Positions 45,058-62,041 of a DNA stretch of 64,000 nucleotides are shown in pieces. The stretch is from Elusimicrobiota bacterium (GTDB taxonomy: Bacteria > Elusimicrobiota > Elusimicrobia > Elusimicrobiales > UBA9959): NCBI GenBank assembly GCA_003482905.1, contig DMXM01000028.1, positions 49,703 to 113,702 on the forward strand, given 5' to 3'. Each line of letters starts with the position of its first letter. The first letter of the stretch is position 1. Position numbers and translations under genes: made by a program. A model generated the notes under the pieces. It was not told the origin of the DNA. It did not search any database and worked only from the letters and a program-made list of their open reading frames with translations.

Positions 45058-45064
45058 CACCCGG

Positions 45065-45575: not shown

Positions 45576-45610
45576 ATAGCATAGCAGACCATCCCGACAG
45601 CGTATTGTCG
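45576..45610 (-). promoter_or_regulatory. conserved promoter/operator block (family C) upstream of ssb2
   Basis: Minus strand: CGACAATACGCTGTCGGGATGGTCTGCTATGCTAT. 30 of 35 nt are identical to 62007-62041. Palindrome CGACA-N6-TGTCG, then TATGCTAT as a -10 candidate. Confidence 0.6.
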
Positions 45611-45672
45611 CGTTAAAAACGGCTATTTTTCGGATATGGAGGCCGGGCCTTGATAGGGTAGAATATTACATT

Positions 45673-46614
45673 ATGCGCAAGAACATGCAATGGCTGCTGC
45701 TGATATTGGCCCTGGGCGCGGCCTGGCTGCAATGGTATACACATAAAGACCAGCTGCGGGCTACGGCGCGCCTTATCCAGTGGAAAATGTTCCCCTGCTC
45801 CGGGCCCGTAACCTATTCCGTAGGCTCCATCAGCCTGGGCTACAGCCTTACCGCCGTGGAACTGGCCGACGCTCTGAAAGAGGCCGAAACCGTCTTTGAG
45901 ATCCCGGCGCGCAAGAACCTTTTAGAATTCAGACAGAGCGGCGGCGACGTTACCGTTAACCTGGTCTACGACAACCGCCAGGCCGCGCTGGACAAGCTTG
46001 CGGCGCTGGGCATTAAAACCGACCACAGCCTGGCTTCCTACCAAGCCCTCAAAACCCGGTACGAAGAGCTTGCCGCGCGCACGGAGGCCGAACAGGCCGG
46101 CCTTGCAAGATCGGCGCGCGCCTACAAAACAAAAGAAGCCGCCTATAACGCCGACATGCAGCGCCTTAACCGTCATGACGTCGTAACGCACGCGCAGCAT
46201 CTGCGCGCCAGGTCAGTAAGGGCCGCGCTCTCCATGGAATTCTCGCGCCTTAAGAAGACAGAACGTTCCGTGAACGCCAATGTAGACACCCTTAACGCGC
46301 TGGCCACCACACTTAACCAGATAATAGTGCAGCTTCAATTGAACGTGGCACAATACAACCGCGCGGGCTCCATTATAGGCAGGTACGAAGAAGGTTTATA
46401 CAGGACCGCAAACGGGCAGCGCAGCATAGACGTATACACCTACAGCCAGCGCACACACCTGGTGCGGCTGCTGGCGCACGAACTGGGCCACGCCCTGGGC
46501 CTGGACCATACAGCCGACCCTAAAAGCCTGATGTACCCCATGAACACCGGCGGCAGCCTTGAATTGGCCCCCGCCGACATAACCGAACTGAACCGCGCGT
46601 GCCGGCGGAATTAA
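45673..46614 (+). CDS. matrixin-like zinc metalloprotease with a coiled-coil insertion
   Basis: HELGHALGLDH (HExxHxxGxxH) and Met-turn SLMYP. N-terminal TM/signal. A ~130-aa helical insert (AALDKLAALG...QLNVAQYNRAG) lies inside the catalytic domain. Confidence 0.7.
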   Translation: MRKNMQWLLLILALGAAWLQWYTHKDQLRATARLIQWKMFPCSGPVTYSVGSISLGYSLTAVELADALKEAETVFEIPARKNLLEFRQSGGDVTVNLVYDNRQAALDKLAALGIKTDHSLASYQALKTRYEELAARTEAEQAGLARSARAYKTKEAAYNADMQRLNRHDVVTHAQHLRARSVRAALSMEFSRLKKTERSVNANVDTLNALATTLNQIIVQLQLNVAQYNRAGSIIGRYEEGLYRTANGQRSIDVYTYSQRTHLVRLLAHELGHALGLDHTADPKSLMYPMNTGGSLELAPADITELNRACRRN

Positions 46615-46624
46615 GCAATTAAAT

Positions 46625-46646
46625 AAAGTAGCCTGTCCCCATTTCC
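46625..46646 (+). repeat. repeat family A single copy (AAAGTAGCCTGTCCCCATTTCC)
   Basis: Lies between convergent genes; its last base (46646) is the first base of the mutT stop triplet (46646-46648). Confidence 0.7.
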
Positions 46647-47023
46647 TATTTACGCAGGATGTTTAATACGGGGATATCGGCGCTGCAGAAATCGTATTTC
46701 ACCAGATCCGCGGGAGCTACCCATTCAATGCGGTCGTGGTCGTTAAGATTGAAATCGCCGGAGAGGTGCTCCGTCCTGTAAGCCAGCAGTTCTATCGGCA
46801 AGTGCTTGTAGTCGAACTTGCTTGAGCAGATGAATTCGCCTATTTTGGTATCTACACCGAACTCTTCCATCAGTTCGCGCCGCAGGCAGGCCTCGGGCGT
46901 TTCGCCCGGCTCTATCTTGCCGCCTGGGAACTCCCACTTGCCGGCAAGGGTATCCCCCGGCTTGCGCCGGGCTATAAATATCTTCCCGTCTTTCTCAATA
47001 ACCGCGGCCGTTACCTGCTTCAT
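46646..47023 (-). CDS. mutT: NUDIX hydrolase (MutT-like 8-oxo-dGTP diphosphatase)
   Basis: Nudix box GKWEFPGGKIEPGETPEACLRRELMEEFG. Confidence 0.8.
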   Translation of the reverse strand: MKQVTAAVIEKDGKIFIARRKPGDTLAGKWEFPGGKIEPGETPEACLRRELMEEFGVDTKIGEFICSSKFDYKHLPIELLAYRTEHLSGDFNLNDHDRIEWVAPADLVKYDFCSADIPVLNILRK

Positions 47024-47051
47024 ATAATTAAAATTTTGACGAATAGTCCCA

Positions 47052-47393
47052 TTACGGCCGCTTGCCGGTGCGGCAGGCGCAGTTTTTGGCGGCCAGCAGT
47101 TTCAGCTGGCGCTGCGGGGGGTCGATAAAAATATCCTGAACGGCGCGGCCGGTAGCCAGCTTTTTATCCAGCGGGCTTTTGTGGTTGTAGCCCCTGCGCG
47201 CCATTTCGGCCGTAAGCGCCGTGTGGCGCGCGTACAGCGCTTTCAGACGGCCGCGCCAGCGCAGCGTTTCCGGGTGCCGGGAATAACCCTTCTTCCCCTG
47301 CGTCAGCACCACCCAGATGCAATGCAGCTCCCGGTGCTCGCCCAGCAGGTGGTTGCGGCACAGCCTGCGCGGTTCTATATCCCAGATCCTCAT
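47052..47393 (-). CDS. pyrimidine dimer DNA glycosylase / endonuclease V family (DenV-like)
   Basis: MRIWDIEPRRLCRNHLLGEHRELHCIW... resembles the N-terminal catalytic region of T4 DenV-type proteins (LMAEYRELPRVF). Recalled from memory. Confidence 0.55.
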   Translation of the reverse strand: MRIWDIEPRRLCRNHLLGEHRELHCIWVVLTQGKKGYSRHPETLRWRGRLKALYARHTALTAEMARRGYNHKSPLDKKLATGRAVQDIFIDPPQRQLKLLAAKNCACRTGKRP

Positions 47394-47405
47394 ATTAAAC
47401 CCCTG

Positions 47406-47927
47406 TCATTTGGCCCGCGGCGCCGCGCCGGGGAAAATAAGTTTTCCGGTATCGAACCCCAGCTCCCCGGCCCTGGCCACCAGGCGCGCAACTATGTCCG
47501 GCGCCAGCTCGGGGTTGCGGGCCAGCAGCCAAAGGTATTTAAGGGACGGGCCGGCCACCAGCACGTAACTGTAGCCCTGGCGGTCCAGCTCCACTATATT
47601 GTAGCCGCCGTAGAAAGGCCTGAAGAAAGATACCTTCAGCTGCCCCACGGACGCCGGCCCGGTAAAGTAAGCCCGGCCCTCGGCCTCTTTCCATTCCCCG
47701 GTGGCGGCTTTATAACCCCGGTTAACCACATTAACGCCGCCGTCCTCGCGCATGGAATATTCGGCCGTCACGCCGGTGAGCCCGCGTTCAAAGGAGTGGT
47801 CCAGCCGGGCTATTTCGTGCCAGGTGCCCAGGTAGCGGGGCAGTTCAAAGCCGGCCACCGGCGCCACGCCCTTTGGCGCCGTAGCGCAGCCGCCAAACAG
47901 TGCCAGCAGTATAGTTAAGTATTTCAT
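47406..47927 (-). CDS. blc: outer-membrane lipocalin (Blc-like lipoprotein)
   Basis: Lipobox LALFGGC. Motifs LPRYLGTWHEIARLDHSFERG and YNIVELD...YSYVLVAGPSLKYLWLLAR. Confidence 0.85.
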   Translation of the reverse strand: MKYLTILLALFGGCATAPKGVAPVAGFELPRYLGTWHEIARLDHSFERGLTGVTAEYSMREDGGVNVVNRGYKAATGEWKEAEGRAYFTGPASVGQLKVSFFRPFYGGYNIVELDRQGYSYVLVAGPSLKYLWLLARNPELAPDIVARLVARAGELGFDTGKLIFPGAAPRAK

Positions 47928-48370
47928 TGTTCCTCCTTCTGCAGTTCGGGCTCGCCCGCCCGCGGCAGGCCAAAGCGCGCCGACAGCGTATGCAGCAGGT
48001 CTTTGGCGCCGGCCTCTTCCAGGCCCAACAGCGTCTGAAGGCGTACGCGCAATTTATCCCCGCTCAGGCTCACCACCTCGCGGCCCTGTATGGAGAACAG
48101 GAACGCCCCCCACGTAAAAAACCCGGCTGCCGTCCACCCGGCCAGCCAGAACAGCAGGAAGCCGCCGGGCAGCAGGGCCGGCCAGCTGTCGGCAGACCGC
48201 GCCAGCTGCCACAGCGCCTTGGCCGCAGATACCTCGCCGGCCGTCCACCCGCAAAGCCAGAAGCCCATAAAAATGGAGATGGGCCACAGAAAAGGCGTAG
48301 GTATCACCACGCGGGGCCCGTCCGTGGTCTCCTCCAGCGCCCAGGTGCGCGCCTTAAAAATCGCCATCAA
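47924..48370 (-). CDS. hypothetical membrane protein
   Basis: 148 aa with 3 predicted TM helices. 4-nt overlap with the blc start. Confidence 0.55.
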   Translation of the reverse strand: MMAIFKARTWALEETTDGPRVVIPTPFLWPISIFMGFWLCGWTAGEVSAAKALWQLARSADSWPALLPGGFLLFWLAGWTAAGFFTWGAFLFSIQGREVVSLSGDKLRVRLQTLLGLEEAGAKDLLHTLSARFGLPRAGEPELQKEEQ

Positions 48371-48473
48371 TACCTTCCCCCCGGCAGTAGTGCCTGCGTC
48401 ATAATTAATTCCTATTCTAACAAAAGGGATAGGGCAAGGGGACGCCGCGCCAGGGATCAGCTTAGGATAACCC

Positions 48474-48698
48474 TTAAATAAAATTTATTTCAAGCCTTTT
48501 GCCGAACACATGGGCGATTTTTCCCAATGTGGTGAGCGACGGGGCATAGCGGTCCTTCTCCATCCTGGAGATCACCTGCTGCTTGGTATGAAGTTTTTTC
48601 GCAAGCTCCGCCTGCGTCATATGGGAACGCTCCCGCAGGTCCGCTATCTTGTGCGCTATAAGAAGGGCGCCCACGCCATCCTCATAAGACTTCCGCAT
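48474..48698 (-). CDS. XRE-family HTH protein (orphan antitoxin-like)
   Basis: HTH_3: IADLRERSHMTQAELAKKLHTKQQVISRMEKDRYAPSLTTLGKIAHVFG. Only ~115 nt separate it from the transposase remnant, so no partner gene fits. Confidence 0.75.
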   Translation of the reverse strand: MRKSYEDGVGALLIAHKIADLRERSHMTQAELAKKLHTKQQVISRMEKDRYAPSLTTLGKIAHVFGKRLEINFI

Positions 48699-48813
48699 TG
48701 CGGGGGTGGAGTGCGCCCCTAAAACTGAACAGATTTCGAGGCTAGATTAGGTATGGTTCTGACTGGTTTCCTAAAGTGCCGTGATATAATTAAAAACGAG
48801 CGAGGAACCAGCC

Positions 48814-49713
48814 ATGGGAAAGAAGAAGCGGATATTTTCAGTTGAGCTTAAGAAACAGGTAGTCCGGGAAGTGGAAACCGGCGCGTGCGGGCTGACAGAG
48901 GCCGCCAGGCGCTACAGCCTGGAAGCCAGATTCATCACCGTAGAAGACACGGTAAACCTTATGCGCTGCACGAAAGACTACTTGAATGTAAACGGGCGCC
49001 CGGTGGCGATTTACGTAGACAAGGATTCGATCTACAAGATCAACCGGCAGGCCAGCATAGACGAAGAACTGCGCGACGCCATGCCGCTTTCGCAGTTTAC
49101 GCGTGCGATGGGCGAGCTTGGGGTTGAGATGATCTTTGCCAACAGTCCGCAGGCAAAAGGCAGGGTGGAGCGCGGTTTCCGCACGCATCAGGACCGGCTT
49201 GTAAAAGAGCTAAGGCTGGCCGGGATATCGGATATGGCGGCGGCCAACAAGTTTCTGGAGACCGTCTATATCGCCAAGCACAATGGGAAATTTGCGATTG
49301 CCCCGGCGAGCAGGCTTAACGCGCACAGGCCGCTTCTTAAAACGCATCGGCTGGACGAGATATTGTGCGTAAAGCTAACCCGGACACTTGCGAACGACTA
49401 TACCCTGCGCTTTGACAACAAGTTCTTTCAGGTCACCAGGGAGCAGGACATCCGTATACGGTCCAGGGACATCGTGACCGTAGAGCAATGGCTGGGCGGC
49501 AGCATACACTTGAAGTTTAAAGGGGTTTACCTGAGGTACAAGAACATAAACAAGCTGCCTTATCGCGGGTACTATATCACCCACCGCAACGAACTAAACA
49601 GGGTCGGGAGCGGCACGGGGACGAGCGTCCCGGCCAAAGACCATCCATGGAGGAGGTTTATCCCTTCGAAAAGGCCGCCGCAACAACCAGTGTTAAGCAG
49701 TCAGGCATCATGA
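48814..49713 (+). pseudogene. chimeric/truncated transposase remnant (IS3-type OrfA N-terminus joined to the C-terminal part of an rve/ISNCY-like catalytic domain)
   Basis: The first ~35 aa (KKKRIFSVELKKQVVREVETG..LTEAARRYSL) look like an IS3 OrfA HTH. The sequence then jumps into ...VAIYVDKDSIY...ANSPQAKGRVERGFRTHQDRLVKELRLAGIS. The first catalytic Asp region is missing and no terminal inverted repeats were found. Confidence 0.65.
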
Positions 49714-49762
49714 CATTTATAAAAAACTAAAACCATGACATTTTAACTTGCTTGCAACAGGA

Positions 49763-49793
49763 GGGGACGCTGCTTCCTATCTTCCTAACTTCC
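49763..49793 (-). repeat. repeat family B, inverted copy with 8-nt internal duplication
   Basis: GGGGACGCTGCTTCCTATCTTCCTAACTTCC is the reverse complement of GGAAGTTAGGAAGATAGGAAGCAGCGTCCCC. It is followed by a family A-like tail, CTGTCCCCCATCTTT. Confidence 0.75.
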
Positions 49794-49832
49794 GGCCATC
49801 TCCCTGTCCCCCATCTTTAATAGAATATCTTA

Positions 49833-50891
49833 ATGCAACCTGATCTGCGGGGCTTGACCCGCGCCGATATTGCGGCGGCGCTAGTGGGCCTGGGCGAGAA
49901 GCCCGGCAACGCCGGCGCGGTATTTATGGCCGTGCACCGCCGCGGCGCCGCGGACCTGGCATTGCTGCCGAACGTGCCGGCGCGCGTATGCCTGGCGCTT
50001 GGCCGCGCCTTCACGCTGGCGCCCCTGCCCATCCCGGAGCGCAAGCTGGTAGCCCCGGACGGCACCAGAAAGCTGCTCTTCCGGTTCCCCGGGGAAGCCA
50101 CGGCCGAATGCGTGGTGCTGCCGGCCAAAGACCACCAGACCGCCTGCCTCTCGTCGCAGTCCGGCTGCGCCTGCGGCTGCACCTTCTGCGCCACCGGCGC
50201 CCTTGGGCTTAAGCGCTCGCTCACCCCGGCCGAGATAATAGCCCAGTACGAGGCCTGCCTGCGCGAGGCCGTGGACCTGCGGAGCCTGGTCTTTATGGGC
50301 ATGGGCGAACCTTTCCTGAACTGGGAGAACGTCAGAAAGGCCATAATGATACTTTCCGACAGCCGCGGCCGCCATTTTCCCCAGGTTAAAATGACCGTAT
50401 CCACCGTGGGCGTGATACCTGTTATAGAGGAGTTAACTACGTCGGACCTGCGGGTGAGGCTCGCCGTATCGGTGGTGGCGGCGGACCCGGAGCTGCGCGC
50501 GCGCCTGGCCCCCATGGAGAACACTTACCCGCTAAACCGCGTGCTGGCCGCCGTAAGGCGCTACTGCGCCGCGCGGCAGGCGCACGTTATGCTGGAGTAC
50601 ATCCTGCTCCCCGGCGTAAACGACCGGCCGTCCGACTCCGCGCTGCTGGCCAGGCTTATTGAAGGCATCCCCTGCCGCCTTAACCTGATCCCCTACAATC
50701 CGCCCGGCGGTCCCGGCCGCGCCACGCCGCGCATAAAAGAATTTCAGCAGGAACTTATAGCCGCCGGCGTGCTCGCCTACCTCCGCCAGGAAAAGGGCGC
50801 GTCCATAGCCGCGGCCTGCGGCCAACTCGCCGCCAGTGCGGATAGGGGGGAACAGCCTGTTGTCCCCTTTACTTTTTATCAAGGGCTTTAA
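49833..50891 (+). CDS. rlmN: 23S rRNA/tRNA (adenine-C2)-methyltransferase RlmN (radical SAM)
   Basis: CxxxCxxC cluster SSQSGCACGCTFCATG. Motifs MGMGEPFLN and CGQLA. TAGAAT lies 6 nt upstream of the ATG. Confidence 0.9.
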   Translation: MQPDLRGLTRADIAAALVGLGEKPGNAGAVFMAVHRRGAADLALLPNVPARVCLALGRAFTLAPLPIPERKLVAPDGTRKLLFRFPGEATAECVVLPAKDHQTACLSSQSGCACGCTFCATGALGLKRSLTPAEIIAQYEACLREAVDLRSLVFMGMGEPFLNWENVRKAIMILSDSRGRHFPQVKMTVSTVGVIPVIEELTTSDLRVRLAVSVVAADPELRARLAPMENTYPLNRVLAAVRRYCAARQAHVMLEYILLPGVNDRPSDSALLARLIEGIPCRLNLIPYNPPGGPGRATPRIKEFQQELIAAGVLAYLRQEKGASIAAACGQLAASADRGEQPVVPFTFYQGL

Positions 50892-51555
50892 GGACTTCAG
50901 GCGTGCCGATATTCGCAAGGGCTTCCCCGGCGTGAGACTGCAAGAGCGCGTCTTTATCCTTAAGCGCCAATATCAGCGTGGGCACAGCCATCTTTGCGTC
51001 CGGGCCTATTCTCCCCAGCGCGCGCACGGAGCTCTGCCGCAGCCCCAGGTCCTTGCCGCCGGCCGCCTCGACAAGCAGTGGAACCGCGGCCTTTGCCGCC
51101 GGGCCGAAATCCCCCAGAGCGCTGGCGGCATTGCGCCTGGTCTCAAGGTCTTTGTCTTTAAGCGCCTTCATGAGATATGGAATAGCTTCCGGCCCTATCC
51201 GTCCAAAAGCGTCCGTGGCGGCCAAACCGACATTGGACTCCAACCCGGGGTCATTGAGCATCTTTATAAGCACGGGAATGGCGGACTTCGCCGCCGGACC
51301 TATTTCCCCCACGGCCCTGGCCGCGTAATAGCGGACGGCTTCGTCCTTGCTCTTAAGCAGACCGGTAAGCGCGGGAACGATCTTTGCCTTGGCCGCGGCG
51401 TCCATACCGCCCAGTTCGCCGTCGGCGGCCTCGCGCACCCGCTCATCCGCCGAAACCAGCCTCTCGGGCAGGGTTGCCGCAAAACATGCCGCGCTCCCCA
51501 GCGCCAGCGCCAGAAAGCAGCCCCCCGCCGCCGTAAGCCTTGCAAATCTTCCCAT
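50869..51555 (-). CDS. secreted HEAT-repeat (PBS-lyase-type) protein
   Basis: Signal peptide. About 6 repeats of ..VRxxAAxALGxIGPxAKxAVPxLxxxLKDKD.. The 3' end overlaps rlmN by 23 nt. Confidence 0.7.
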   Translation of the reverse strand: MGRFARLTAAGGCFLALALGSAACFAATLPERLVSADERVREAADGELGGMDAAAKAKIVPALTGLLKSKDEAVRYYAARAVGEIGPAAKSAIPVLIKMLNDPGLESNVGLAATDAFGRIGPEAIPYLMKALKDKDLETRRNAASALGDFGPAAKAAVPLLVEAAGGKDLGLRQSSVRALGRIGPDAKMAVPTLILALKDKDALLQSHAGEALANIGTPEVLKALDKK

Positions 51556-51686
51556 ATGAATTCTCCTTCGGTATTTAACAGGTTATGACGTTTTTTTATT
51601 CCGCAAATATTCTAGCAAAAGGCCCATACTGCCTTTTTCCGGGCGCAGAATACAAAAGGTAGCAGGTACCTTTTTACTGCCCGCTG

Positions 51687-51716
51687 TTGACAATCACGGC
51701 TGATTTTTGTGATATT
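51687..51716 (+). promoter_or_regulatory. putative promoter of the PLC-like/secretin operon
   Basis: TTGACA (51687-51692), a 17-nt spacer, then TGATAT(T). This leaves a ~100-nt 5' UTR. Confidence 0.5.
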
Positions 51717-51822
51717 GGCCTTGGGGGGCAGTCATTTAGATTCTAAGGCACCGGTACCGCGCAGAAACGCGGGATCTTGCCTGCCTCATTATGGCAGAAA
51801 CGTCGGGGATCGAGGGGGACTT

Positions 51823-52830
51823 ATGAAAAAATATATATCTTGGCTGACATTGGCTTGTCTGCTGGCCGGTTCTGCGCCTTACGCGGCGTTAGCGAGCGGA
51901 CAGGCCATCCACCTGATGACCGCGAGCAAGGCGGTCAAAAAGATAAAGTCGAAGGGGCTTGAGTCACTGCTCGACGAGAAACGCAGGTGGTTCCTGTCGG
52001 GCGCCATATTCCCGGACACCGGGGGCCACACGAGCGATGAATTTTCCAAGTTCCTTCACGGCGGCAAATTCCTTAACGCCTATGCCGATTATATCGTGGA
52101 GACCTGCGGCAAGGACTTCAACACGCACTGCAAGGACCGGATGGCGCATTTCCTCGGCGTGCTGACGCATATCCGGTCGGACATAAGGTTCGACCGTTAC
52201 TTCGTGACCAGGGTCAGGAAAGAGTGTAAATTCAAGGATGTCTCCAACAACGCGCAGTATTGGGCGGACAACCATCTTGACCCTATCGCGGTTTGCAAGC
52301 ACCGGGATTTCGGCGCGAAGTACGGCCTGACCTATATAGAGAAGGTCGAGTGCCCCGATGACACTTTGCTGGCCGTTTTTAAGAATGCTGGGACAAAATA
52401 CACGCGTGATAACATCAAAAAAGGGCTCAAAGAGCAGGAGGATATGCTCCAGATGGAATTCAAGCTGAAGGACTACGGCATTTTATGCGAGTCCTATCTG
52501 GCCAACGGCAGCATCAGGGATACGGCCACCGACGGCAGGGATTGTCATTGCGGGAAGCTCGGCCTGCCCAGGGATTGCACCTGCAACTACTGGGATCAAT
52601 GCCCGTGGGGCTCAAGAGAGGAGAACTATTATTCAGGCAATAAAGTGGAAGGGAGCATCGACGACATGGGAGAGGATGTTATGCCCGACTGGCTGGAAAC
52701 GACCTATGACGCGCTGATGGCGGCTATAAAGAAAGGCAAGGATGCCCCGGTATTTGCGAAAAAGGGGGATTGGCCGGCGCAGGACCTGTGCCGGATGTGG
52801 ATCCCGAGTTCGGCCAAGTACTGCGACTAG
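51823..52830 (+). CDS. secreted zinc-dependent phospholipase C-like protein
   Basis: Start set to ATG 51823 behind GAGGGGGA. Signal peptide MKKYISWLTLACLLAGSAPYAALA. HLMTASKA...FLSGAIFPDTGGH...HFLGVLTHIRSDIRFD resembles the Zn_dep_PLPC family. Cys-rich C-terminal part. The composition looks less GC-rich than the neighbouring genes. Confidence 0.5.
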   Translation: MKKYISWLTLACLLAGSAPYAALASGQAIHLMTASKAVKKIKSKGLESLLDEKRRWFLSGAIFPDTGGHTSDEFSKFLHGGKFLNAYADYIVETCGKDFNTHCKDRMAHFLGVLTHIRSDIRFDRYFVTRVRKECKFKDVSNNAQYWADNHLDPIAVCKHRDFGAKYGLTYIEKVECPDDTLLAVFKNAGTKYTRDNIKKGLKEQEDMLQMEFKLKDYGILCESYLANGSIRDTATDGRDCHCGKLGLPRDCTCNYWDQCPWGSREENYYSGNKVEGSIDDMGEDVMPDWLETTYDALMAAIKKGKDAPVFAKKGDWPAQDLCRMWIPSSAKYCD

Positions 52831-52857
52831 AAATCAAGATAGTCCTGGAGACGCATT

Positions 52858-54866: not shown

Positions 54867-54899
54867 ACCACAAATCTTAACTTAGGTGCGTTGATTAAC

Positions 54900-54922
54900 A
54901 GGAAGTTAGGAAGCAGCGTCCC
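54900..54922 (+). repeat. repeat family B, copy (AGGAAGTTAGGAAGCAGCGTCCC)
   Basis: Identical 23-mer to 22444-22466. Also abuts the stop codon of a minus-strand gene. Confidence 0.8.
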
Positions 54923-54930
54923 TAGCCCCC

Positions 54931-55338: not shown

Positions 55339-55419
55339 AAACCAGATTATACTAAAGCTGCCTCTTACGCGCGGAAACCCTTTTGGGCCTGACGACCAAA
55401 CGTGGACGTTGCCAATAAC

Positions 55420-56088
55420 TCAATAACCGGGAAGGGATACCGTAACCCTGGCGCCGCGGCCGCTGGCGTTCTCCGCTTTGACCGTGCCGCCCTGCCGGGC
55501 CAGCAGCTTGCGCGCGATGGTAAGGCCGAGCCCTATGCCTCGCGGCTTGGTGGTAAAGAACGGCTCGAAGGCCTTCTCGCCGTCGCCGCCGGGGAAGCCG
55601 GGCCCGGTGTCGGTGCAGGTGAGGTGCACCAGCCCGGCATCGTGAGAGCACTCCAATATAACAAGGCCGCCTTCCGGCAGCGCCTGCACCGCGTTAGTCA
55701 GCACGCAGCGCAGCGCGTAGCCAATGGCGTCCATATCCGCGTTCACGCGCGGGTCCGCCGGGTCGGCGGCCACCTTCAGCGTGACCGTGGGCGGAACCGG
55801 ATAAGACTCCGCCAGGTCCCTGAGGGCCGCGTTGGCGGAAGCCGGCGCGCGCTTCAGTTCCCTGGCGCGGGTGAAAGCGAGTATCTCCTCTATAACGTCG
55901 TTGGCATGCTTCACCTCGCCCTCTATTATCCCCAGGTGCTTGGCCACCTTGGGGTCGGGCGCCGCCCCGCCGGCGCTCAGCTTGGTCTTTATGAAATACA
56001 GCGAATTGGAAATAATGGCCAGGGGATTGCGTATTTCGTGGGCGACCACGCTGGACATCTGCGTAAGAAGTTCCGGTTTCTCTTTCAT
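55420..56088 (-). CDS. minimal soluble histidine kinase (HisKA + HATPase only)
   Basis: H-box SSVVAHEIRNPLAII. N box LTNAVQALPEGG. G boxes DTGPGF and GIGLGL. No sensor domain or TM. Confidence 0.8.
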   Translation of the reverse strand: MKEKPELLTQMSSVVAHEIRNPLAIISNSLYFIKTKLSAGGAAPDPKVAKHLGIIEGEVKHANDVIEEILAFTRARELKRAPASANAALRDLAESYPVPPTVTLKVAADPADPRVNADMDAIGYALRCVLTNAVQALPEGGLVILECSHDAGLVHLTCTDTGPGFPGGDGEKAFEPFFTTKPRGIGLGLTIARKLLARQGGTVKAENASGRGARVTVSLPGY

Positions 56089-56100
56089 ACTGACCTTCCC

Positions 56101-56502
56101 CTAATATGAATACCAGTACTGGCCCTTTTCGTTCTTGTGCGTGCAATTAAGGAGCAGCGTGCCGTGGGTCACCGGGTACGCCTTGGCGTTGTAATAGGCG
56201 TAGCCGCCGGTGTCGGTAAGCTTGGCCGGGTCCACGGCCGGCCCGGAAAGGTAAAGCACCTCGCTGGTCTCCCGGTGCCCCGGCAGATCAAGCTTGGGCA
56301 GCCCGGTCAGATATTTGCCGTTTTCGGTCAGCAGGTCCAGCCGTTCCGGGAAAACCCCTTCCGTATCCCCGTAATATACCTGCAGGGCCGACCGCACGCT
56401 GCCCAGACGGCCGAGGTTCCCCGGGCTGTCGAACTTTTTCTCGCCGCACCCGCAAAACAGAGCGACAATACCGCATACCAGATACCAATATTTAAATTTC
56501 AT
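56101..56502 (-). CDS. lipoprotein with pilin-like globular domain (hypothetical)
   Basis: Start set to ATG 56502 (MKFKYWYLVCGIVALFCGCG). LGSVRSALQVYYGDTEGVFP...LLNCTH...WYSY resembles the headgroup of type IV pilin-like proteins, but no prepilin methylation motif is present. Confidence 0.45.
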   Translation of the reverse strand: MKFKYWYLVCGIVALFCGCGEKKFDSPGNLGRLGSVRSALQVYYGDTEGVFPERLDLLTENGKYLTGLPKLDLPGHRETSEVLYLSGPAVDPAKLTDTGGYAYYNAKAYPVTHGTLLLNCTHKNEKGQYWYSY

Positions 56503-56509
56503 ATAAATA

Positions 56510-56547
56510 ATTCTACCAAAACAAAACCGCCGGGGGCCCTCCCCCCG
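56510..56547 (-). promoter_or_regulatory. terminator/promoter cassette copy 1
   Basis: Minus strand: GC hairpin, then GGCGGTTTTGTTTTGGTAGAAT. TAGAAT ends 7 nt before ATG 56502. Confidence 0.6.
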
Positions 56548-56548
56548 T

Positions 56549-57586
56549 TTAGCCGCCGCGAAGTTTGCGTTTGGCCTCGGTAATGTCACGGGCCATCTTG
56601 GAGAAATTCTTAAGCTTCCGTTTGGCCATTACGCGTTTTTTAAGGTCCGTCCCAAGTTCCTGCCGCTCCGTTTCCCGCCTTAACTTGTGGTAACTCCTCA
56701 GCCTGGCGTGGGACAACGTCCCGGCTTCCAGCGCCACCCGCACCGCGCAGCCAGGCTCGGAAACATGAGAACAGTTCTTGAAGCGGCAGCCCGCTGCCAG
56801 AACCTGAATGTCGCTGAAAGACGTTTCCAGGCCTTCCCCGGAGTATTCCACGCAGAACTCCCTTATGCCGGGAGTATCTATAACCTGACCGCCGCCGGGC
56901 AGGAAATACAGATGCCTGGAAGTGGTAGTGTGCCTGCCACGCGCGTCGGCTTCCCTTACAGCGCCGGTAGGCGCGGCCGCGCGGCCGGCCAGCCGGTTAA
57001 GCAGCGTTGTCTTACCAGCGCCCGAAGAGCCAAGAAAACAGCAGCGCACACCCCCGGCCAGCGCCGCCTCCACCAGTGCCACGCCTTCACCGGACACCGA
57101 GGAAAGGCAGAACACCTCCACCCCGGGGGCGGCCCGCGCCACCGCGCCCAGCTTCACCGCCACCTCCAGGTCCGGGCAAAGGTCTTTCTTGGTAAGCACC
57201 ACCACCGGCACCCCGCCGCTGTCCCAGGCGGCCACCAGCAGGCGCTCCAGCCGGGCGATATTATAATTGTCGTCCAGCCCCATCACTATGAACACCTTGC
57301 TCACGTTGGCGGCCAGCGGCTGCGCGTCCTTCGCCGGGCCGGCGGCCTTCCGGAGCAGTATGGTCCTGCGCGGCAGCACTGCGTATATAACCGCCTTCTC
57401 CCCGCCGTCATGCAGCGCCACCAAAACGTCGTCGCCCACCACGGGGAAGTCCAACCTGGAAACGGCCTCTCCCATGAACTTCCCAGCCACGGTCGCCGGA
57501 AGCTCCCTGCCGTCGAGCCACACAGTATATGCCAGCCTCTGCTCCGCCGTCACAAGGGCGGTAAATTCGGCCTTCAGGTCTTTCAT
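56549..57586 (-). CDS. rsgA: ribosome small-subunit-dependent GTPase A
   Basis: Circularly permuted GTPase: VLTKKDL, GSSGAGKTTLLN and the zinc knuckle CRFKNCSHVSEPGCAV. Confidence 0.9.
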   Translation of the reverse strand: MKDLKAEFTALVTAEQRLAYTVWLDGRELPATVAGKFMGEAVSRLDFPVVGDDVLVALHDGGEKAVIYAVLPRRTILLRKAAGPAKDAQPLAANVSKVFIVMGLDDNYNIARLERLLVAAWDSGGVPVVVLTKKDLCPDLEVAVKLGAVARAAPGVEVFCLSSVSGEGVALVEAALAGGVRCCFLGSSGAGKTTLLNRLAGRAAAPTGAVREADARGRHTTTSRHLYFLPGGGQVIDTPGIREFCVEYSGEGLETSFSDIQVLAAGCRFKNCSHVSEPGCAVRVALEAGTLSHARLRSYHKLRRETERQELGTDLKKRVMAKRKLKNFSKMARDITEAKRKLRGG

Positions 57587-57595
57587 ATTTCCTTC

Positions 57596-57617
57596 ATTCT
57601 ACAAAACAAAACCGCCT
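57596..57617 (-). promoter_or_regulatory. terminator/promoter cassette copy 2 (promoter part only)
   Basis: GGCGGTTTTGTTTTGTAGAAT, with TAGAAT ending 9 nt before ATG 57586. The upstream neighbour is divergent, so no terminator is needed here. Confidence 0.55.
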
Positions 57618-57692
57618 GGATTTGAAACTTCCTGCGCCCGGCCGCATCTAAATCAGGAAGAAGAAATTTAACCGCGACAAGGACTCATCCGC

Positions 57693-58043
57693 ATGAACAT
57701 GGAAACCCTGCAACCATATCTCCTGCCGGCAGGCGTAGCCGCCTACCTGCTCTTCCGCCATTTCCGCTTGGGGGCCATCCGGCAAAAGCTGCCCTTGCTG
57801 GCGGCGGCCGGAGCGGTTATAGTGGACGTGCGCTCACCGGCGGAGTTCGCCGGGGGAAGCAGGCCCGGCAGCGTCAACATCCCCCTGGAAACGCTGGCCA
57901 AGCGGGCTTCACAGCTGGACAAGACCAAACCGGTGGTCCTCTGCTGCGCCTCCGGGGCGCGCAGCGGCGTTGCCGCGGGCATATTGAAAGGTTTGGGCTT
58001 CCGGCAAGTCACCAACGCAGGCCCCTGGCAAAACACTCTTTAG
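57693..58043 (+). CDS. membrane-anchored rhodanese-domain protein
   Basis: N-terminal TM. VIVDVRSPAEFAGG...VVLCCASGARS active-site loop. Confidence 0.8.
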   Translation: MNMETLQPYLLPAGVAAYLLFRHFRLGAIRQKLPLLAAAGAVIVDVRSPAEFAGGSRPGSVNIPLETLAKRASQLDKTKPVVLCCASGARSGVAAGILKGLGFRQVTNAGPWQNTL

Positions 58044-58068
58044 GGAAACCAGTGACAGCGCCCTATTT

Positions 58069-58470
58069 CTATTGCCAGGATATCTGTTTTTTTAGCCTGA
58101 ATCCCACCTGCGCCATGGACACCAGCGCGCCAGGCAGGGCCGCCGCGTAAGAGGCCGCCGCCCCGGCCGCGCCCGGAGCGTTGTCCGCCAGCGCCAGGGC
58201 CGTGTCCAAGGGGGAAAGCAGGATGAACTTAAGCACCAGTACCAGGCAAATAACGTTCTCACACAGCGCAGCCAGGCCCGCATAGCGCAGCCTGTACCAC
58301 AGCGCGGCCCCTAAGCCCCCTTCCACAGCATAAAAGCCTACGGTCCCGGCCAGCCCGCCCCCCACTACCGCGCCCGCCCTGAAATTCGGCCAGACAAAAA
58401 CCTCCAGCACCAGCCACACCGGCGCCAAATAATAAAACCAGTCCAGCGGCTCTATCTTTCGGGGGTCCAT
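58069..58470 (-). CDS. hypothetical membrane protein
   Basis: 133 aa, 4 predicted TM helices. TAGAAT ends 7 nt before the ATG. Confidence 0.55.
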   Translation of the reverse strand: MDPRKIEPLDWFYYLAPVWLVLEVFVWPNFRAGAVVGGGLAGTVGFYAVEGGLGAALWYRLRYAGLAALCENVICLVLVLKFILLSPLDTALALADNAPGAAGAAASYAAALPGALVSMAQVGFRLKKQISWQ

Positions 58471-58477
58471 TCCCTCT

Positions 58478-58514
58478 ATTCTACCAAAACAAAACCGCCG
58501 GGCTTCCCCGGCGG
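58478..58514 (-). promoter_or_regulatory. terminator/promoter cassette copy 3
   Basis: CCGCCGGGGAAGCCCGGCGG hairpin followed by TTTTGTTTTGGTAGAAT. Confidence 0.65.
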
Positions 58515-58539
58515 CTATGCGCTAAAAGTCCCGCTTTTG

Positions 58540-59145
58540 CTATTTTCCGATATTTACCACAATGTCCTTTGCCAGGTCATCGGTCAGGTTCATTATGGCT
58601 TTCTGTATTATCGCCTCGGGCTTTGCCAGTTCCCCTATCTTGCCGCCGAAGGCATGCTTTTCGGAACTTTTGGCCTTACCCACAGCCCTGCCCGCTCCCA
58701 AAAGCTCGCCGGTCTCCAGGTTAACCAGCCGCGCCTCCACCGCAACTTCCACCTTGCGGTCCGTCTTCTCGGCTATTTTCACGCTGCGCCATTCATCGTT
58801 TACGGAGACGGCCGTTACCGAACCGAGCACAGCGTAGCGCGCCCCTATAAGCTTGCCCACCTGCGCCGCGGTGTTGGAGTCTACCACGCCGGCAGTAGCC
58901 AGCTGAAGCTCTTTCATGGCGGCATCCACGCGGGCCCGCTCCACAAGGCGTATCCTGCCGGTCTTCATAAGCGAAGCCGTTAAGGAATCCTGCAGACCGG
59001 TTACGCTGGAAGCATATTGCGGATCCGAAGCCGCATAAGTTAGCGGCATAACGCAGGCCAGCGGGCGCTGCTCAAAAGGTACGCCGGTGCTGGCGCAGGC
59101 TCCTGCCAGCAGCAGGACCGGAAGAAATAACTTGATCTTATTCAT
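58540..59145 (-). CDS. CsgG/HfaB-family-like periplasmic/outer-membrane lipoprotein
   Basis: Start set to MNKIKLFLPVLLLAGACAS (lipobox). ...LQDSLTASLMKTGRIRLVERARVDAAMKELQLATAGVVDSNTAAQVGKLIGARYAVLGSVT matches the CsgG-family pattern, recalled from memory. Confidence 0.5.
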   Translation of the reverse strand: MNKIKLFLPVLLLAGACASTGVPFEQRPLACVMPLTYAASDPQYASSVTGLQDSLTASLMKTGRIRLVERARVDAAMKELQLATAGVVDSNTAAQVGKLIGARYAVLGSVTAVSVNDEWRSVKIAEKTDRKVEVAVEARLVNLETGELLGAGRAVGKAKSSEKHAFGGKIGELAKPEAIIQKAIMNLTDDLAKDIVVNIGK

Positions 59146-59234
59146 GGTTCGGTACCCCCGTATATATTTCAGCAAAACTATGATATCAAAATACCGCGTT
59201 TAGAGTAAAAGCCCGACGGCGCACCGGCCGGTAG

Positions 59235-59852
59235 TCAGAAGCCTGCGTTCAGGCCTATGGTAACCGGCAGCAGCGCGTTCTTGCCGCCTATATTCGCGAC
59301 CCCTATCTGGACCCCTTTCAGCGTGCCGCGGCAGATATTTACGGCGCCCAGCTGCAGGCCGCTCATATCCCCGTCCGTGACATTGTAAAAACCCAGCTGT
59401 ATGCCGCGCATCCGGTCCTTAACCACGTTAACGGGCGCGGCCATAACACCGTTACCCAGGCCGGCCCAGTTCCGAAGCCAGGCGGCCTGTACCCCCCAAG
59501 CCTCGTTGGAAACGTTCCAGCCGCCGAATTGTACGCCGTACTGGTAGTCGGCGAAATTGCGCGCCGGCGACGACTGCAATCCGTAGACCGCGCCGGTGAC
59601 ATAGTTATACCACAGCCCCAGCTGCGCCCCGCCCACGGTCCCGGCGCCATTGAGCACCCCGAACTGCAAACCGTAAATCTCCGGGGTATCTCCGGAAAAG
59701 TTCAGGTTCAGGCCGGCCACCGTATCCACATCCTCCGGCCAGGCCCAGCTGCTCCCGGACAGCTCCAGCTTGAACGGAGTCCAGCCGCAGTTCCCCGCGG
59801 CCGGCGCCAGCGCCAACAGCCACAGCGCGGCAAGAACCTTTAATTTATCCAT
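59235..59852 (-). CDS. secreted tandem-repeat protein (G-phi-Q-phi-G-x-x-N units), C-terminal Phe
   Basis: Signal peptide MDKLKVLAALWLLALAPAAG. About 10 units of 14-16 aa, e.g. GLQFGVLN, GAQLGLWYN, GVQFGGWN, GIQLGFYN, GLQLGAVN, GVQIGVAN. Ends GLNAGF. Confidence 0.65.
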   Translation of the reverse strand: MDKLKVLAALWLLALAPAAGNCGWTPFKLELSGSSWAWPEDVDTVAGLNLNFSGDTPEIYGLQFGVLNGAGTVGGAQLGLWYNYVTGAVYGLQSSPARNFADYQYGVQFGGWNVSNEAWGVQAAWLRNWAGLGNGVMAAPVNVVKDRMRGIQLGFYNVTDGDMSGLQLGAVNICRGTLKGVQIGVANIGGKNALLPVTIGLNAGF

Positions 59853-59916
59853 ATCTTTACCCTCCCCGCTGCCGCATTCGGAAAATTATATATGACCCGG
59901 AAACCTGAACGTCTAT

Positions 59917-59969
59917 ATTCTACCAAACCCGCCCCGCCCCAAAACAAAACCGCCGGGCCTCCCCGGCGG
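59917..59969 (-). promoter_or_regulatory. terminator/promoter cassette copy 4 (with 16-nt insertion)
   Basis: CCGCCGGGGAGGCCCGGCGG-TTTTGTTTTG-GGGCGGGGCGGGTTT-GGTAGAAT, 64 nt upstream of ATG 59852. Confidence 0.6.
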
Positions 59970-59992
59970 CTTAAAAAAAGCAGCCTGGCACC

Positions 59993-60616
59993 TTATTTTT
60001 CTTTGGGGGCGCAGGTCACTTCTTTTAGCCTGGCCGGATATACGGTACGCATGCCGCTCATGGTCCCGAAGGAAAGCGTACGATACACGGCACGGAACAG
60101 GCTGCCGTTGGGGGCGAAATCGAACCACGCCTTGTCTTCCTGGCCGAAAACTACGGAAACCTGCACAGCGGCGCCGTAGCCCAGCAACCCGCACAAAGCG
60201 GTCGCGCGGCCTTCCTGTATCTGTTTCCACCTCGGCTGGACGAACTGGGTCTGCTCGCCGGCGTTCAAGGCCAGGAAATGACAGCCGTCCAATTGGGGGT
60301 CCTGCAGCAGCGCGCCTTTTCCCGTAGTTGCGGGCCGTTCCCCGCTTGACGGTTTCACGCTTTGATCTTCATCCGGCAGAACCGAAAGCCCGGTAAATCT
60401 CTTCCCGTCAAGAACAATGGCCCCGGTCTCCAATTTGGGGACCGGGATATTCCCGCTATCTTTTTCCATCGCCGGGATAGTGGTGTCGAAATCTCCCCTG
60501 CCTGCCACCGCGTCCCTGAGGTCGGCCGGGATATCCTTGTGGAAATCTTTAACGTAAGCGAACCCCGACGCCGTTACTATCACGGCGGCAAACACATATT
60601 CTTTCCAGTTGTTCAT
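59993..60616 (-). CDS. hypothetical membrane-anchored protein
   Basis: 207 aa. N-terminal TM YVFAAVIVTASGFAYV. SD-like AGAGGGA. No family recognised. Confidence 0.5.
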   Translation of the reverse strand: MNNWKEYVFAAVIVTASGFAYVKDFHKDIPADLRDAVAGRGDFDTTIPAMEKDSGNIPVPKLETGAIVLDGKRFTGLSVLPDEDQSVKPSSGERPATTGKGALLQDPQLDGCHFLALNAGEQTQFVQPRWKQIQEGRATALCGLLGYGAAVQVSVVFGQEDKAWFDFAPNGSLFRAVYRTLSFGTMSGMRTVYPARLKEVTCAPKEK

Positions 60617-60712
60617 AATCCCTCTTTAAATAGCCGCATAATACCGTCTTTGACCATCCGCAGCCGATTCAACCAGGTTAAAACAGGCAATGTATCCCCA
60701 GTTCCTGACACC

Positions 60713-61300
60713 TTAATAAAATCCGAGCAGCGAATATATCTTGCCGGAAACAACGGCGCCCGAAACGCCAAAGCCGAACGGAAGAGATATCTTAAGCAGA
60801 CCGGAAACAAAGCGCTTTTTGGAAATCCATCTCATAAAAGGCCCAAAAAGCGCCAGGGCCAATCCCATGGAGATCAAAAACGCCCCGGTGCGGATCCTCT
60901 CCAGCACAAAACTGAACCCGTCGGTTATTGAAATAGCCTGCCCGAAGTACAAACCCAAAGTAAGCAGCAGCCAGCAGAAAATATCCCGCTTCAAGTCAGT
61001 TCTTTTCTTAAAATTCAGCATCTGCAGGAAAAACAGATCATCCCGCGTGGCCCTGGGCGCCGGCGCGGGCGACGCCGCGGGGACGGACATAGGCCTTACC
61101 CCGTTGCCGGTGTCGGGCGAAGGCCCCGGCGTGAACACAGCCGCTGCCGCCGGCTCGGGCGCTGGCGGCGGCGGGGTCTCATAGACATAGAACCCCAGGT
61201 CTAAAATATAATCAGCCGTTTTTTTAGTCAGATCGGAATAATTCATTTTACCAGCCATCTTAACCCTGTCAGCGTAATGCGCAGCCTCCCGCCATATCAC
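60713..61300 (-). CDS. hypothetical membrane protein (start uncertain)
   Basis: GTG start at 61300 per the ORF track; internal ATGs (MAGKMNYSDL) are possible. Pro/Ala-rich linker followed by 3-4 C-terminal TMs. Confidence 0.45.
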   Translation of the reverse strand: MIWREAAHYADRVKMAGKMNYSDLTKKTADYILDLGFYVYETPPPPAPEPAAAAVFTPGPSPDTGNGVRPMSVPAASPAPAPRATRDDLFFLQMLNFKKRTDLKRDIFCWLLLTLGLYFGQAISITDGFSFVLERIRTGAFLISMGLALALFGPFMRWISKKRFVSGLLKISLPFGFGVSGAVVSGKIYSLLGFY

Positions 61301-61463
61301 GAATATTTTACAAAACCGTTGGCCCCTTGGGCGGCCTCAATTATTATTTCCGGGGGCAGTATATTTAATTAGGCGATTTCCATTAAACCAATTGAAATAG
61401 GTGACGTGCCCCAATGATCAACGCAGAGCGATCTTAACAAATTGGGGTTTATCGGGCGTTGGC

Positions 61464-61982
61464 CTATTTCTCAGGCTTAAAGCCCGTGACCTTTCTGGGG
61501 CCGGGATCAAAATCCGGCGGCTGGGCCATTAGCATCTTTATGGCGTCGAATACGCTTTTAAACTGCGCGTCGTATTTCTTTTCCAACCCCTCTAACTTAT
61601 GGGCCAACTCTTTATGGGTGTTAAGCAGCTGCCGCAGTTTAACAAAGGCCCTCATTACCTGTATATTCACCTGTATAGCGCGACTGCTCTTTAGGACTGA
61701 GGACAGCATTAATATCCCATGCTCCGTAAAAGCGTGCGGCATCTTCCTGGTCCCGCCCCAACTTGATGTTCCAGATTGGAACATCAAGTTTTCGAACTCT
61801 TTTTTATTCAATTGGAACATAAAGTCTTCCGGGAAACGCTCCGGATTACGTGAAACCGCCTTGTTTAAATCCCGTGTCCCTACGCCATAAAGGACAGCCA
61901 GCTCCCTGTCCAGCATAACCCTATGGCCTCGGATAAACAGAATCTTCTGCTCAATCATATCTACCGGAATCAATGATTTCAT
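61464..61982 (-). CDS. ORF6N-domain protein (KilA-N-related DNA-binding, antirepressor-like), paralog 1
   Basis: [45 protein letters not shown]...[32 protein letters not shown] is the ORF6N signature, recalled from memory. Confidence 0.7.
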   Translation of the reverse strand: MKSLIPVDMIEQKILFIRGHRVMLDRELAVLYGVGTRDLNKAVSRNPERFPEDFMFQLNKKEFENLMFQSGTSSWGGTRKMPHAFTEHGILMLSSVLKSSRAIQVNIQVMRAFVKLRQLLNTHKELAHKLEGLEKKYDAQFKSVFDAIKMLMAQPPDFDPGPRKVTGFKPEK

Positions 61983-62006
61983 AATCCCCCCTTTTTTTTT
62001 GCATTA

Positions 62007-62041
62007 ATAGCATAGCAGAGCAACCCGACAGTGTAGTGTCG
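62007..62041 (-). promoter_or_regulatory. conserved promoter/operator block (family C) upstream of ORF6N paralog 1
   Basis: Minus strand: CGACACTACACTGTCGGGTTGCTCTGCTATGCTAT. The palindrome arms CGACA/TGTCG are conserved relative to 45576-45610, while the spacer differs. Confidence 0.6.

Follow-up and report, generated by a model that had tools for sequence, protein, structure and literature searches.

The stretch of DNA analysed here (the window) comprises 64,000 nucleotides of an Elusimicrobiota contig (DMXM01000028.1, positions 49,703 to 113,702 of the forward strand; assembly GCA_003482905.1), and on its minus strand it carries two copies of a block of 35 nucleotides, one upstream of a gene for an accessory single-stranded DNA-binding protein (SSB) and one upstream of a gene for an ORF6N-domain protein. 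We consider it likely that this block is a promoter dependent on an activator of the WYL family, which switches on the SSB gene, the ORF6N genes and other genes for DNA handling or candidate defence functions after DNA damage. The block is a conserved motif of rigid geometry that is found throughout the lineage in front of particular sets of genes, and a regulator gene whose product has the fold of WYL activators exists in the lineage and is linked to it. By analogy with described members of that family, the regulator would bind the block, activate transcription and sense single-stranded DNA (ssDNA).

Both blocks were found exactly where a first-pass annotation of the window had placed them, at 45610-45576 and 62041-62007. 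That annotation had counted 30 of 35 positions as identical, and recounting gave 31 of 35 (four mismatches), or 32 of 36 if the next T is included; it had rightly put them close to the start codons, and its figure of 25-41 nt is corrected to distances between block end and ATG of 40 nt (SSB gene) and 24 nt (ORF6N gene 1). The pattern CGACA-N6-TGTCG-N11-TATGCTAT matched the window twice, against 0.00 matches expected from 100 shuffles, and the bare palindrome CGACA-N6-TGTCG likewise matched twice, against 0.03 expected by shuffling. Alignment of the flanks showed that the surroundings of the two blocks are unrelated and that their likeness ends at the block edges (about 40 nt in all), and so the blocks do not mark where a duplicated stretch with coding sequence ends, as the annotation had also held. 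A scan of the whole window (64 kb) with a position weight matrix (PWM) built from 115 distinct sites of the collected loci gave no site besides these two, a consensus scan of 44900-45900 gave no sigma-70 -35/-10 pair upstream of the SSB gene, and no Rfam family was matched over 44600-64000. The annotation had suggested that the same block might stand beyond position 64000, in front of a second ORF6N paralog, and a third copy, CGACACTACGCTGTCGGGTTGGTCTGCTATGCTAT, was indeed present on a matching JGI metagenome contig (L119, 6013-6047), 22 nt 5' of the ATG of that paralog; its window-equivalent position is 64024-64058, that is, 24-58 nt past the window end. The parts of the two window copies, with their PWM scores, are as follows.

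45576-45610, minus strand: block copy 1, putative promoter of the tipless SSB gene; PWM score 60.8 (maximum 71.4)
45610-45606, minus strand: copy 1, distal arm CGACA
45605-45600, minus strand: copy 1, spacer
45599-45594, minus strand: copy 1, proximal arm plus G, TGTCGG (the '-26 element')
45586-45585, minus strand: copy 1, extended -10 TG
45583-45578, minus strand: copy 1, -10 hexamer TATGCT
62007-62041, minus strand: block copy 2, putative promoter of ORF6N gene 1; PWM score 47.3
62041-62037, minus strand: copy 2, distal arm
62030-62025, minus strand: copy 2, TGTCGG
62017-62016, minus strand: copy 2, TG
62014-62009, minus strand: copy 2, -10 hexamer TATGCT

The genes under the blocks, and one comparator, are given below; the earlier calls of a tipless SSB and of ORF6N genes were confirmed by matches to PF00436 and PF10543.

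45065-45535, minus strand: accessory SSB of 156 aa lacking the C-terminal acidic tip (C-terminus ...KPARAASRK); PF00436, E 9e-23
61464-61982, minus strand: ORF6N-domain protein 1, 172 aa; PF10543, E 2e-32
63486-64000, minus strand, with its ATG at window-equivalent 64001: ORF6N-domain protein 2; PF10543, hit by the part inside the window (ORF 63486-63992); the gene at 6070-6585 of L119
39276-39722, minus strand: canonical SSB, a comparator outside the regulon, with the tip ...IEEVPF and no block upstream

The two SSB paralogs lie 6 kb apart and their OB folds are 74% identical at the DNA level; their upstream regions are unrelated, and the block belongs to the tipless paralog alone. The tipless gene looks monocistronic and is followed by a terminator-like hairpin (45046-45028); its orthologues stand under the same block in six other loci from metagenome-assembled genomes (MAGs; L050, L062, L075, L101, L108 and L112). 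ORF6N protein 1 gave a hit (E 2e-56) to PDC-S05, one of PADLOC's candidate defence families, and at eight sites in other MAGs the block is likewise followed by an ORF6N gene.

The anatomy of the block was read from the PWM, with positions numbered from the predicted transcription start (+1; see below). Bases that the search pattern had not forced were conserved at several places: AACC at -43 to -40, GGTT at -23 to -20, T, G and C at -15 to -13, T at -4 and a purine at +1. As AACC is the reverse complement of GGTT, these groups extend the repeat to a palindrome of 24 bp whose arms measure 9 bp each, AACCCGACA-N6-TGTCGGGTT; it covers -43 to -20 and has its proximal half-site TGTCGG at -28 to -23. 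The spacer was N6 in 156 of 159 palindromes; N4, N9 and N10 were found once each, and no other length between 2 and 10 (5 and 7 among them) was seen. The distal arm was present in 147 of the 151 sites with TGTCGG-N10-TAnnnT. Among 20 palindromes found independently of the pattern, TAnnnT lay exactly N11 after TGTCG in 19, and the twentieth had TATAAT at N12; variants of the -10 hexamer included TATACT, TAGGCT, TATTCT and similar sequences. An extended -10 TG at -15/-14 occurred in 139 of 151 sites, both window copies among them. No -35 hexamer was seen: the PWM reads A-s-k-C-C-s at -35 to -30, not TTGACA, and it is the variable centre of the palindrome that sits there. Textbook TTGACA-N17-TATAAT promoters do occur in the same genomes, before toxin genes, and the lack of a -35 element is therefore specific to this promoter class. 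The view of the first-pass annotation that a palindrome covers the -35 zone next to a -10 element was thus borne out by the position table, and its dimeric helix-turn-helix (HTH) site survives as a palindrome of 9+6+9 bp that is in all likelihood bound by a dimeric HTH protein. Its proposal that the block acts as an operator is probably wrong, as a fixed distance to the -10 together with the absence of a -35 element is the anatomy of an activator-dependent promoter.

Two unusual arrangements were seen among the sites. At nine loci (L028, L035, L057, L061, L078, L084, L089, L094 and L109) a canonical promoter, TTGACt-N17-TAtAAT, with a small palindrome of its own, follows 30-60 nt after the block; these tandem promoters precede toxin-like genes, namely Gp49/HigB-like genes (PF05973) and a gene for an 84-aa protein without a Pfam match, which by eye we take to be BrnT-like. 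At two loci (L001, sites 3061/3106; L038, sites 3428/3464) back-to-back blocks about 45 nt apart face divergent genes, one of them encoding a DUF2779 protein, and the -10 hexamers are TATACT or TAGACT on one side and TATGCT on the other.

The motif was found to be characteristic of Elusimicrobia. A pattern scan over one genome per species (185,579 species, 596 Gb) gave at least 118 stretches matching CGACA-N6-TGTCG-N11-TATGCTAT; among the matches listed, about 111 were in MAGs named Elusimicrobia, Elusimicrobiota, Elusimicrobiales or Elusimicrobiaceae, or in unlabelled bins with the same genes, and single MAGs held 6-9 exact copies each. Seven listed matches fell outside the lineage (Chamaesiphon, Limosilactobacillus, Saccharibacteria, Gemmiger, Arenicella and, twice, Neorhizobium). 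They fit chance, since they share only the 18 forced bases and none of the unforced conserved ones, and about 17 matches would be expected from simple arithmetic on 18 fixed bases in 596 Gb. The window DNA is about 70-83% identical to several of the block-bearing MAGs and the gene order around the SSB gene is kept, which places it in the same group. In 118 of 125 sites a same-strand open reading frame (ORF) starts within 160 nt. The same pattern with a relaxed -10 gave no match in IMG/VR (2.9 million viral contigs), which argues against a phage-borne element. These results also bear on the regulon as first described. The pattern search that the first-pass annotation had proposed did turn up further copies, and instead of a small regulon it revealed a promoter carried by dozens of gene families across many Elusimicrobia genomes; the link between the accessory SSB and the ORF6N genes stands, at three blocks, and its confinement to a small regulon does not. 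Likewise, the idea of a lineage-specific, SOS-like circuit holds in so far as the motif is Elusimicrobia-wide, and the alternative offered with it, a mobile-element immunity circuit, is not borne out by the empty viral search.

One locus carries a label from another phylum: L001 (JAGVVH010000312.1), from 'Bacteroidetes bacterium WAS_Bin_9', has the same block and DUF2779 gene as Elusimicrobia GWD2_63_28 (L038), and its bin label or binning is probably wrong.

The position of the transcription start was suggested by the genes themselves. Exactly 4 nt after the block, at block position 40, 42 of 151 sites have the start of an ATG, against 0-15 cases at neighbouring offsets, and 38 of these 42 ATGs open long reading frames; block position 40 is a purine in 145 of the 151. 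The ATGs at this position imply leaderless mRNAs and hence a +1 lying 7 nt after TATGCT. For the two window genes the starts predicted from the family of sites are as follows.

45571, minus strand: predicted +1 (G) of the SSB gene, giving a 5' untranslated region (UTR) of 36 nt with a GGGGGA Shine-Dalgarno sequence
62002, minus strand: predicted +1 (G) of ORF6N gene 1, giving a 5' UTR of 20 nt

The median UTR of genes under the block that have a Shine-Dalgarno sequence is 23 nt. At four sites (L023 site 489, L052, L058 site 4060 and L085 site 4060) the ATG at +1 opens a G/A/V-rich ORF of 250-312 aa that runs antisense to an opposite-strand gene with a signal peptide and a '...NVGQGDA...' motif, which by eye we take to be metallo-beta-lactamase/ComEC-like; the G/A/V-rich ORF may be a damage-induced antisense transcript and not a protein gene.

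A candidate regulator was found next to the block. Ten motif-selected loci encode a wHTH-WYL-WCX protein (wHTH, winged helix-turn-helix) of 314-321 aa, with the helix 'VSERSIQRDIERIN', whose gene lies 0.1-2.5 kb upstream of one particular block; a regular expression for the YafY-type HTH (RT.xRD) had no match, and it was a looser expression that found the protein. Its Pfam domains, in order, are HTH_11 (30.4 bits; cut-off 25), WYL (30.5; cut-off 21.8) and WCX (42.5; cut-off 23.9). A sequence search of the PDB returned PafC, PafBC and DriD as the only matches, and a fold search with an AlphaFold model gave DriD and PafBC as the top 15 (E about 5e-13), with the repressors CapW and BrxR at 1e-8 to 1e-6. 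Homologues formed 94 clusters, in all of which the source name was either absent or Elusimicrobia; most carry HTH_11, WYL and WCX, and some short or divergent members lack HTH_11 or WCX. All of 26 orthologues, down to 44% identity, keep two arginines of helix 3 (R44 and R48) and one of the WYL domain (R194, in the YRVDRI strand); by position (i/i+4 spacing) only, these fit the base-reading R46 and R50 of PafB and the ssDNA-binding arginines of the family. As a PDB search with the N-terminal 94 residues gave generic wHTH matches and no alignment to PafB or DriD, the equivalence of the helix 3 residues is not directly demonstrable. A literature search, with most subscription journals outside its reach, found no paper joining Elusimicrobia with WYL regulators.

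The association between this gene and the block was also seen in an independent sample of 26 metagenome loci that were chosen by the regulator alone, 19 of which had at least 2 kb of downstream sequence. A block was present on the same strand in 17 of these 19, about 1.7 kb downstream in 16 and about 3.6 kb downstream in one (L122), and in 16 of the 17 it was directly followed by a leaderless gene for a 64-aa protein, with a 90-aa gene next in the loci inspected. The first-pass annotation had left the regulator unknown and had named LexA, XRE and ORF6N proteins as candidates; none of these is supported, and the conserved wHTH-WYL-WCX protein is the best candidate that we have.

The usual order around the regulator is a tRNA/EF-Tu end, the WYL regulator, a protein of about 340 aa, a DUF350 membrane protein, the block, the 64-aa protein and the 90-aa protein, and it is kept in most of L010, L046, L059, L063, L070, L097 and L122-L144; exceptions are L010, where the regulator stands directly before the block, and L139, where the block precedes a DUF2779-like gene. 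Neither the 64-aa protein (MTNKNRRSIISARAG...LRVYTLG...FSLRLW) nor the 90-aa protein (MSWKLKEW...) matched any Pfam family.

The families encoded downstream of the block were counted over 125 sites, with the following result.

leaderless 64-aa protein: 17 sites
YhcG/DUF1016 nuclease: 9 sites
ORF6N: 9 sites
Y1 (IS200-like) transposase: 8 sites
Schlafen/AlbA_2 with HATPase_c_4: 7 sites
SSB: 7 sites
DUF2779: 5 sites
RadC: 5 sites
98-aa protein: 5 sites
UvrD+PDDEXK (AddA-like) helicase-nuclease: 3 sites
ComM/Mg-chelatase-like: 2 sites
KilA-N: 2 sites
DUF3800: 2 sites
Radical-SAM + HhH repair protein: 2 sites

Other targets were DNA methylases, DUF559 proteins and toxin genes. Most SSBs under the block have no canonical tip, and two of them end in EPAF; YhcG matches the PADLOC candidate defence family PDC-S02 (E 7e-141). 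The targets combine candidate defence genes with genes for ssDNA and recombination functions.

Taken with what has been described for PafBC, DriD and DdaA, these observations suggest how the block could work. It would serve the housekeeping RNA polymerase as a complete, specialised promoter rather than being an ordinary promoter with an operator attached. The 24-bp repeat would be occupied by a homodimer of a wHTH-WYL-WCX regulator from the PafBC/DriD/DdaA family, with the proximal arm at the '-26' position of PafBC; by analogy with those three systems, ssDNA on the WYL domain would free the wHTH domains, and the bound dimer would then recruit or adapt the RNA polymerase-sigma holoenzyme to a promoter that is otherwise poorly read. 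Induction would be expected upon DNA damage or other events that produce ssDNA, such as the entry of invading DNA. In the genome of the window the genes induced should include the tipless SSB and both ORF6N genes, and across the lineage a stereotyped set of genes for DNA repair, recombination and candidate defence.

Several points weigh against this account. The structural model of the regulator is of moderate quality only (predicted local distance difference test, pLDDT, 73; predicted template modelling score, pTM, 0.34). The regulator gene itself is preceded by an AT-rich promoter that has TATAAT and no block, and so there is no sign of autoregulation. The regulator gene is absent from the 64-kb window, which is the part of this genome that was covered, and was on no contig of the window's own sample in a metagenome scan. 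More distant orthologues (43-51% identity, 40-52% GC) keep the recognition helix and have no block within 10 kb, although these loci are uninformative on whether regulator and block vary together. The Elusimicrobia spacer is N6 (CGAC-N8-GTCG), whereas the boxes of DriD and DdaA have N5 (CGAC-N7-GTCG). The label of a DNA-damage response draws on family analogy and gene content, and recA, uvrA and lexA were not present in the approximately 1.1 Mb of collected sequence, in which tblastn with Escherichia coli RecA and LexA found no match. Finally, the TGn of the extended -10 could permit activity without an activator, which would fit a repressor.

In two of the distant-orthologue genomes (L148, 4329-4345; L149, 4315-4331) a CGACA-N7-TGTCG sequence lies between SpoU methylase and PFK genes, with no TAnnnT at the usual distance.

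A repressor is indeed the alternative that survives best, although we think it unlikely. The WYL protein would in that case behave like BrxR or CapW and hold down a constitutive extended -10 promoter until released by ssDNA, with the same ssDNA-induced outcome. Promoters of the extended -10 kind can work without a -35 element, and 139 of the 151 sites have the TG; a palindrome at -43 to -20 could occlude RNA polymerase; CapW and BrxR are significant fold matches; and WYL repressors that sense ssDNA are known (PMC11662680). However, the distance to the -10 is constant, which activators require and repressors do not; the block agrees exactly, spacing included, with the PafBC activator consensus; the fold E-values of DriD and PafBC are lower than those of CapW and BrxR by some five orders of magnitude; and the model is helical (H79-144) in the region where DriD has a three-helix bundle. 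Constant geometry, exact agreement with PafBC and rank in the fold search are our grounds for favouring activation over repression.

It is very improbable that the block is an operator for a repressor outside the WYL family, be it LexA, an XRE-type protein or self-regulating ORF6N proteins. A palindrome of 16-24 bp over a promoter has the form of a classical SOS box, the targets are DNA-related, and ORF6N and KilA-N are DNA-binding domains as well as frequent targets. Yet half-sites and -10 spacing match those of WYL activators, the distance of the palindrome from the -10 does not vary, and we know of no LexA motif with such half-sites or spacing. Most block-bearing loci have no ORF6N gene, it is the WYL gene that is syntenic with the block, and IMG/VR held no match; the lack of lexA and recA in the collected sequence points the same way, if weakly.

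Some 40 conserved positions in fixed geometry before many unrelated genes could also mark the promoter of a dedicated alternative sigma factor of the ECF (extracytoplasmic function) kind, read without a separate DNA-binding regulator, and this we find hardly credible: a perfect inverted repeat of 9+6+9 bp suggests a reader with two-fold symmetry, a dimer, in place of sigma region 4, the -10 (TGnTAnnnT) has the housekeeping form, and no sigma gene is linked to the block. A mobile or duplicated repeat without regulatory role (a duplicated-segment end, or an element like the repetitive extragenic palindromes, REP, or miniature inverted-repeat transposable elements, MITE), as the many copies per genome, the hairpin-forming palindrome and the nearby Y1 (RayT-like) transposase genes might suggest, is extremely unlikely, for the likeness stops at the block, 118 of 125 sites face a same-strand ORF start within 160 nt, orthologous genes keep the block across genomes only about 70-80% identical, and Rfam found no family in 44600-64000.

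Other features of the window were also recorded. A shared unit of about 30 nt, CAAAACAAAACCGCCGGG...CCCGGCGG, recurs at the ends of genes and, read on the minus strand, consists of a GC hairpin with TTTTGTTTTG behind it, the make-up of a stereotyped intrinsic terminator. Its 'cccggcggtttt' is also frequent directly 5' of the block in other genomes. The ORF at 48814-49713 (plus strand, 299 aa), beside a short ORF of 74 aa, is by eye what we assume to be a truncated transposase or integrase fragment. The copies of the terminator unit are at the following positions.

54674-54706: terminator unit
56516-56548: terminator unit
57596-57619: terminator unit
58484-58516: terminator unit
59939-59971: terminator unit
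62762-62794: terminator unit

If the block is an activator-dependent promoter of this kind, a mostly uncultivated phylum gains a testable stress regulon, defined by a promoter signature of about 40 nt, a single candidate regulator and a catalogue of target families, and damage responses run by WYL activators would extend beyond Actinobacteria, Caulobacter and Moraxellaceae. Tipless SSB paralogs and the ORF6N/KilA-N, YhcG/DUF1016, DUF2779, PDC-S05 and PDC-S02 proteins would share a regulatory context, induction by ssDNA or damage, and that context would provide a handle on the function of these poorly understood block-driven proteins.

Among known systems, the LexA SOS boxes and the radiation/desiccation response motif (RDRM) of DdrO/PprI in Deinococcus are likewise palindromes in front of dispersed repair genes and define damage-inducible regulons. 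Both are repressor systems, with sites at variable positions on complete promoters, and their motifs are unrelated to the block. BrxR and CapW share the domain architecture of the Elusimicrobia protein, the sensing of ssDNA and the connection with defence genes; they are local repressors of one adjacent system, whereas in Elusimicrobia a single motif stands before many genes that are not linked, in a fixed geometry like that of an activator.

The closest likeness in promoter layout is to PafBC, whose in-vivo consensus is tGTCgg(N10)tA(N3)T, with the 5' part at -23 to -28, no -35 element and the housekeeping sigma factor (PMC8635444). The block, TGTCGG-GTTCGTCTGC-TATGCT, fits this exactly, spacing included, in both window copies and in the 151 sites of the collected loci, and PafBC belongs to the same wHTH-WYL-WCX family, with PafC and PafBC the best PDB sequence matches of the Elusimicrobia protein. 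The PafBC motif is not palindromic, however, and is bound by a PafB/PafC heterodimer in which PafB alone reads DNA, whereas in Elusimicrobia 147 of 151 sites have a distal half-site and a single regulator gene is found, which suggests a homodimer reading both arms.

DriD, which governs a damage response independent of SOS in Caulobacter crescentus, is a homodimeric WYL activator and the top fold match of the Elusimicrobia regulator, and the helical region H79-144 of the model corresponds in place to the three-helix bundle described for DriD between wHTH and WYL. Its box is ATACGAC(N7)GTCGTAT, with the consensus oligo ATACGACAGTTACTGTCGTAT (PMC10853764); the half-sites CGAC(A)/(T)GTCG are common to both systems, whereas the outer arms are ATA/TAT around an AT-rich centre in DriD and AACC/GGTT around a GC-rich centre in Elusimicrobia; with its one extra spacer base the block is a different box, if one that would act alike. 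In DriD promoters, which lack a -35, the box covers part of the place where that element would lie and keeps a single distance to the -10, and an 'optimised -35' oligo for the DriD promoter has TTGACA 17 nt before CAATCT (PMC13004042); read from the published oligos, TGTCG in the DriD promoter would also be about 11 nt from the -10. The promoter region of driD is itself a target of DriD, in contrast to the Elusimicrobia regulator, which has no block upstream. The distance from the proximal half-site to the -10 is therefore that of the PafBC consensus and apparently the same in the DriD promoter, which bears on how RNA polymerase is engaged.

DdaA of Moraxellaceae binds CGWCA-N5-TGWCG, in the form CGACAATATGTGTCG at aciT and also at recA, ssb, uvrA and cas genes (PMC12392091, PMC13010146). 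It has the same half-sites, and its regulon combines ssb and damage genes with anti-phage defence genes, much as the Elusimicrobia targets match PDC-S05 and PDC-S02; its spacer is N5 and it comes from a different phylum, and of the DdaA-box genes recA, ssb and uvrA the Elusimicrobia target list, drawn from collected sequence without recA and uvrA, has ssb.

These likenesses invite a more speculative proposal, which we put forward tentatively and regard as rather doubtful: that the block is an intermediate form uniting the half-site 'sigma-adaptation' promoter of PafBC with the palindromic box of DriD and DdaA, that TGTCG-N11-(-10) is an ancient WYL geometry shared across phyla, and that the block defines the main ssDNA-triggered stress regulon of Elusimicrobia. 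If so, this regulon would have recruited a tipless SSB and candidate single-gene defence proteins (ORF6N/PDC-S05, YhcG/PDC-S02 and Schlafen-AlbA_2), together with domesticated Y1 transposases and small leaderless proteins that are possible division inhibitors. In its N6 spacer, its 24-bp repeat and its set of targets, the Elusimicrobia system is different from the WYL examples described so far.

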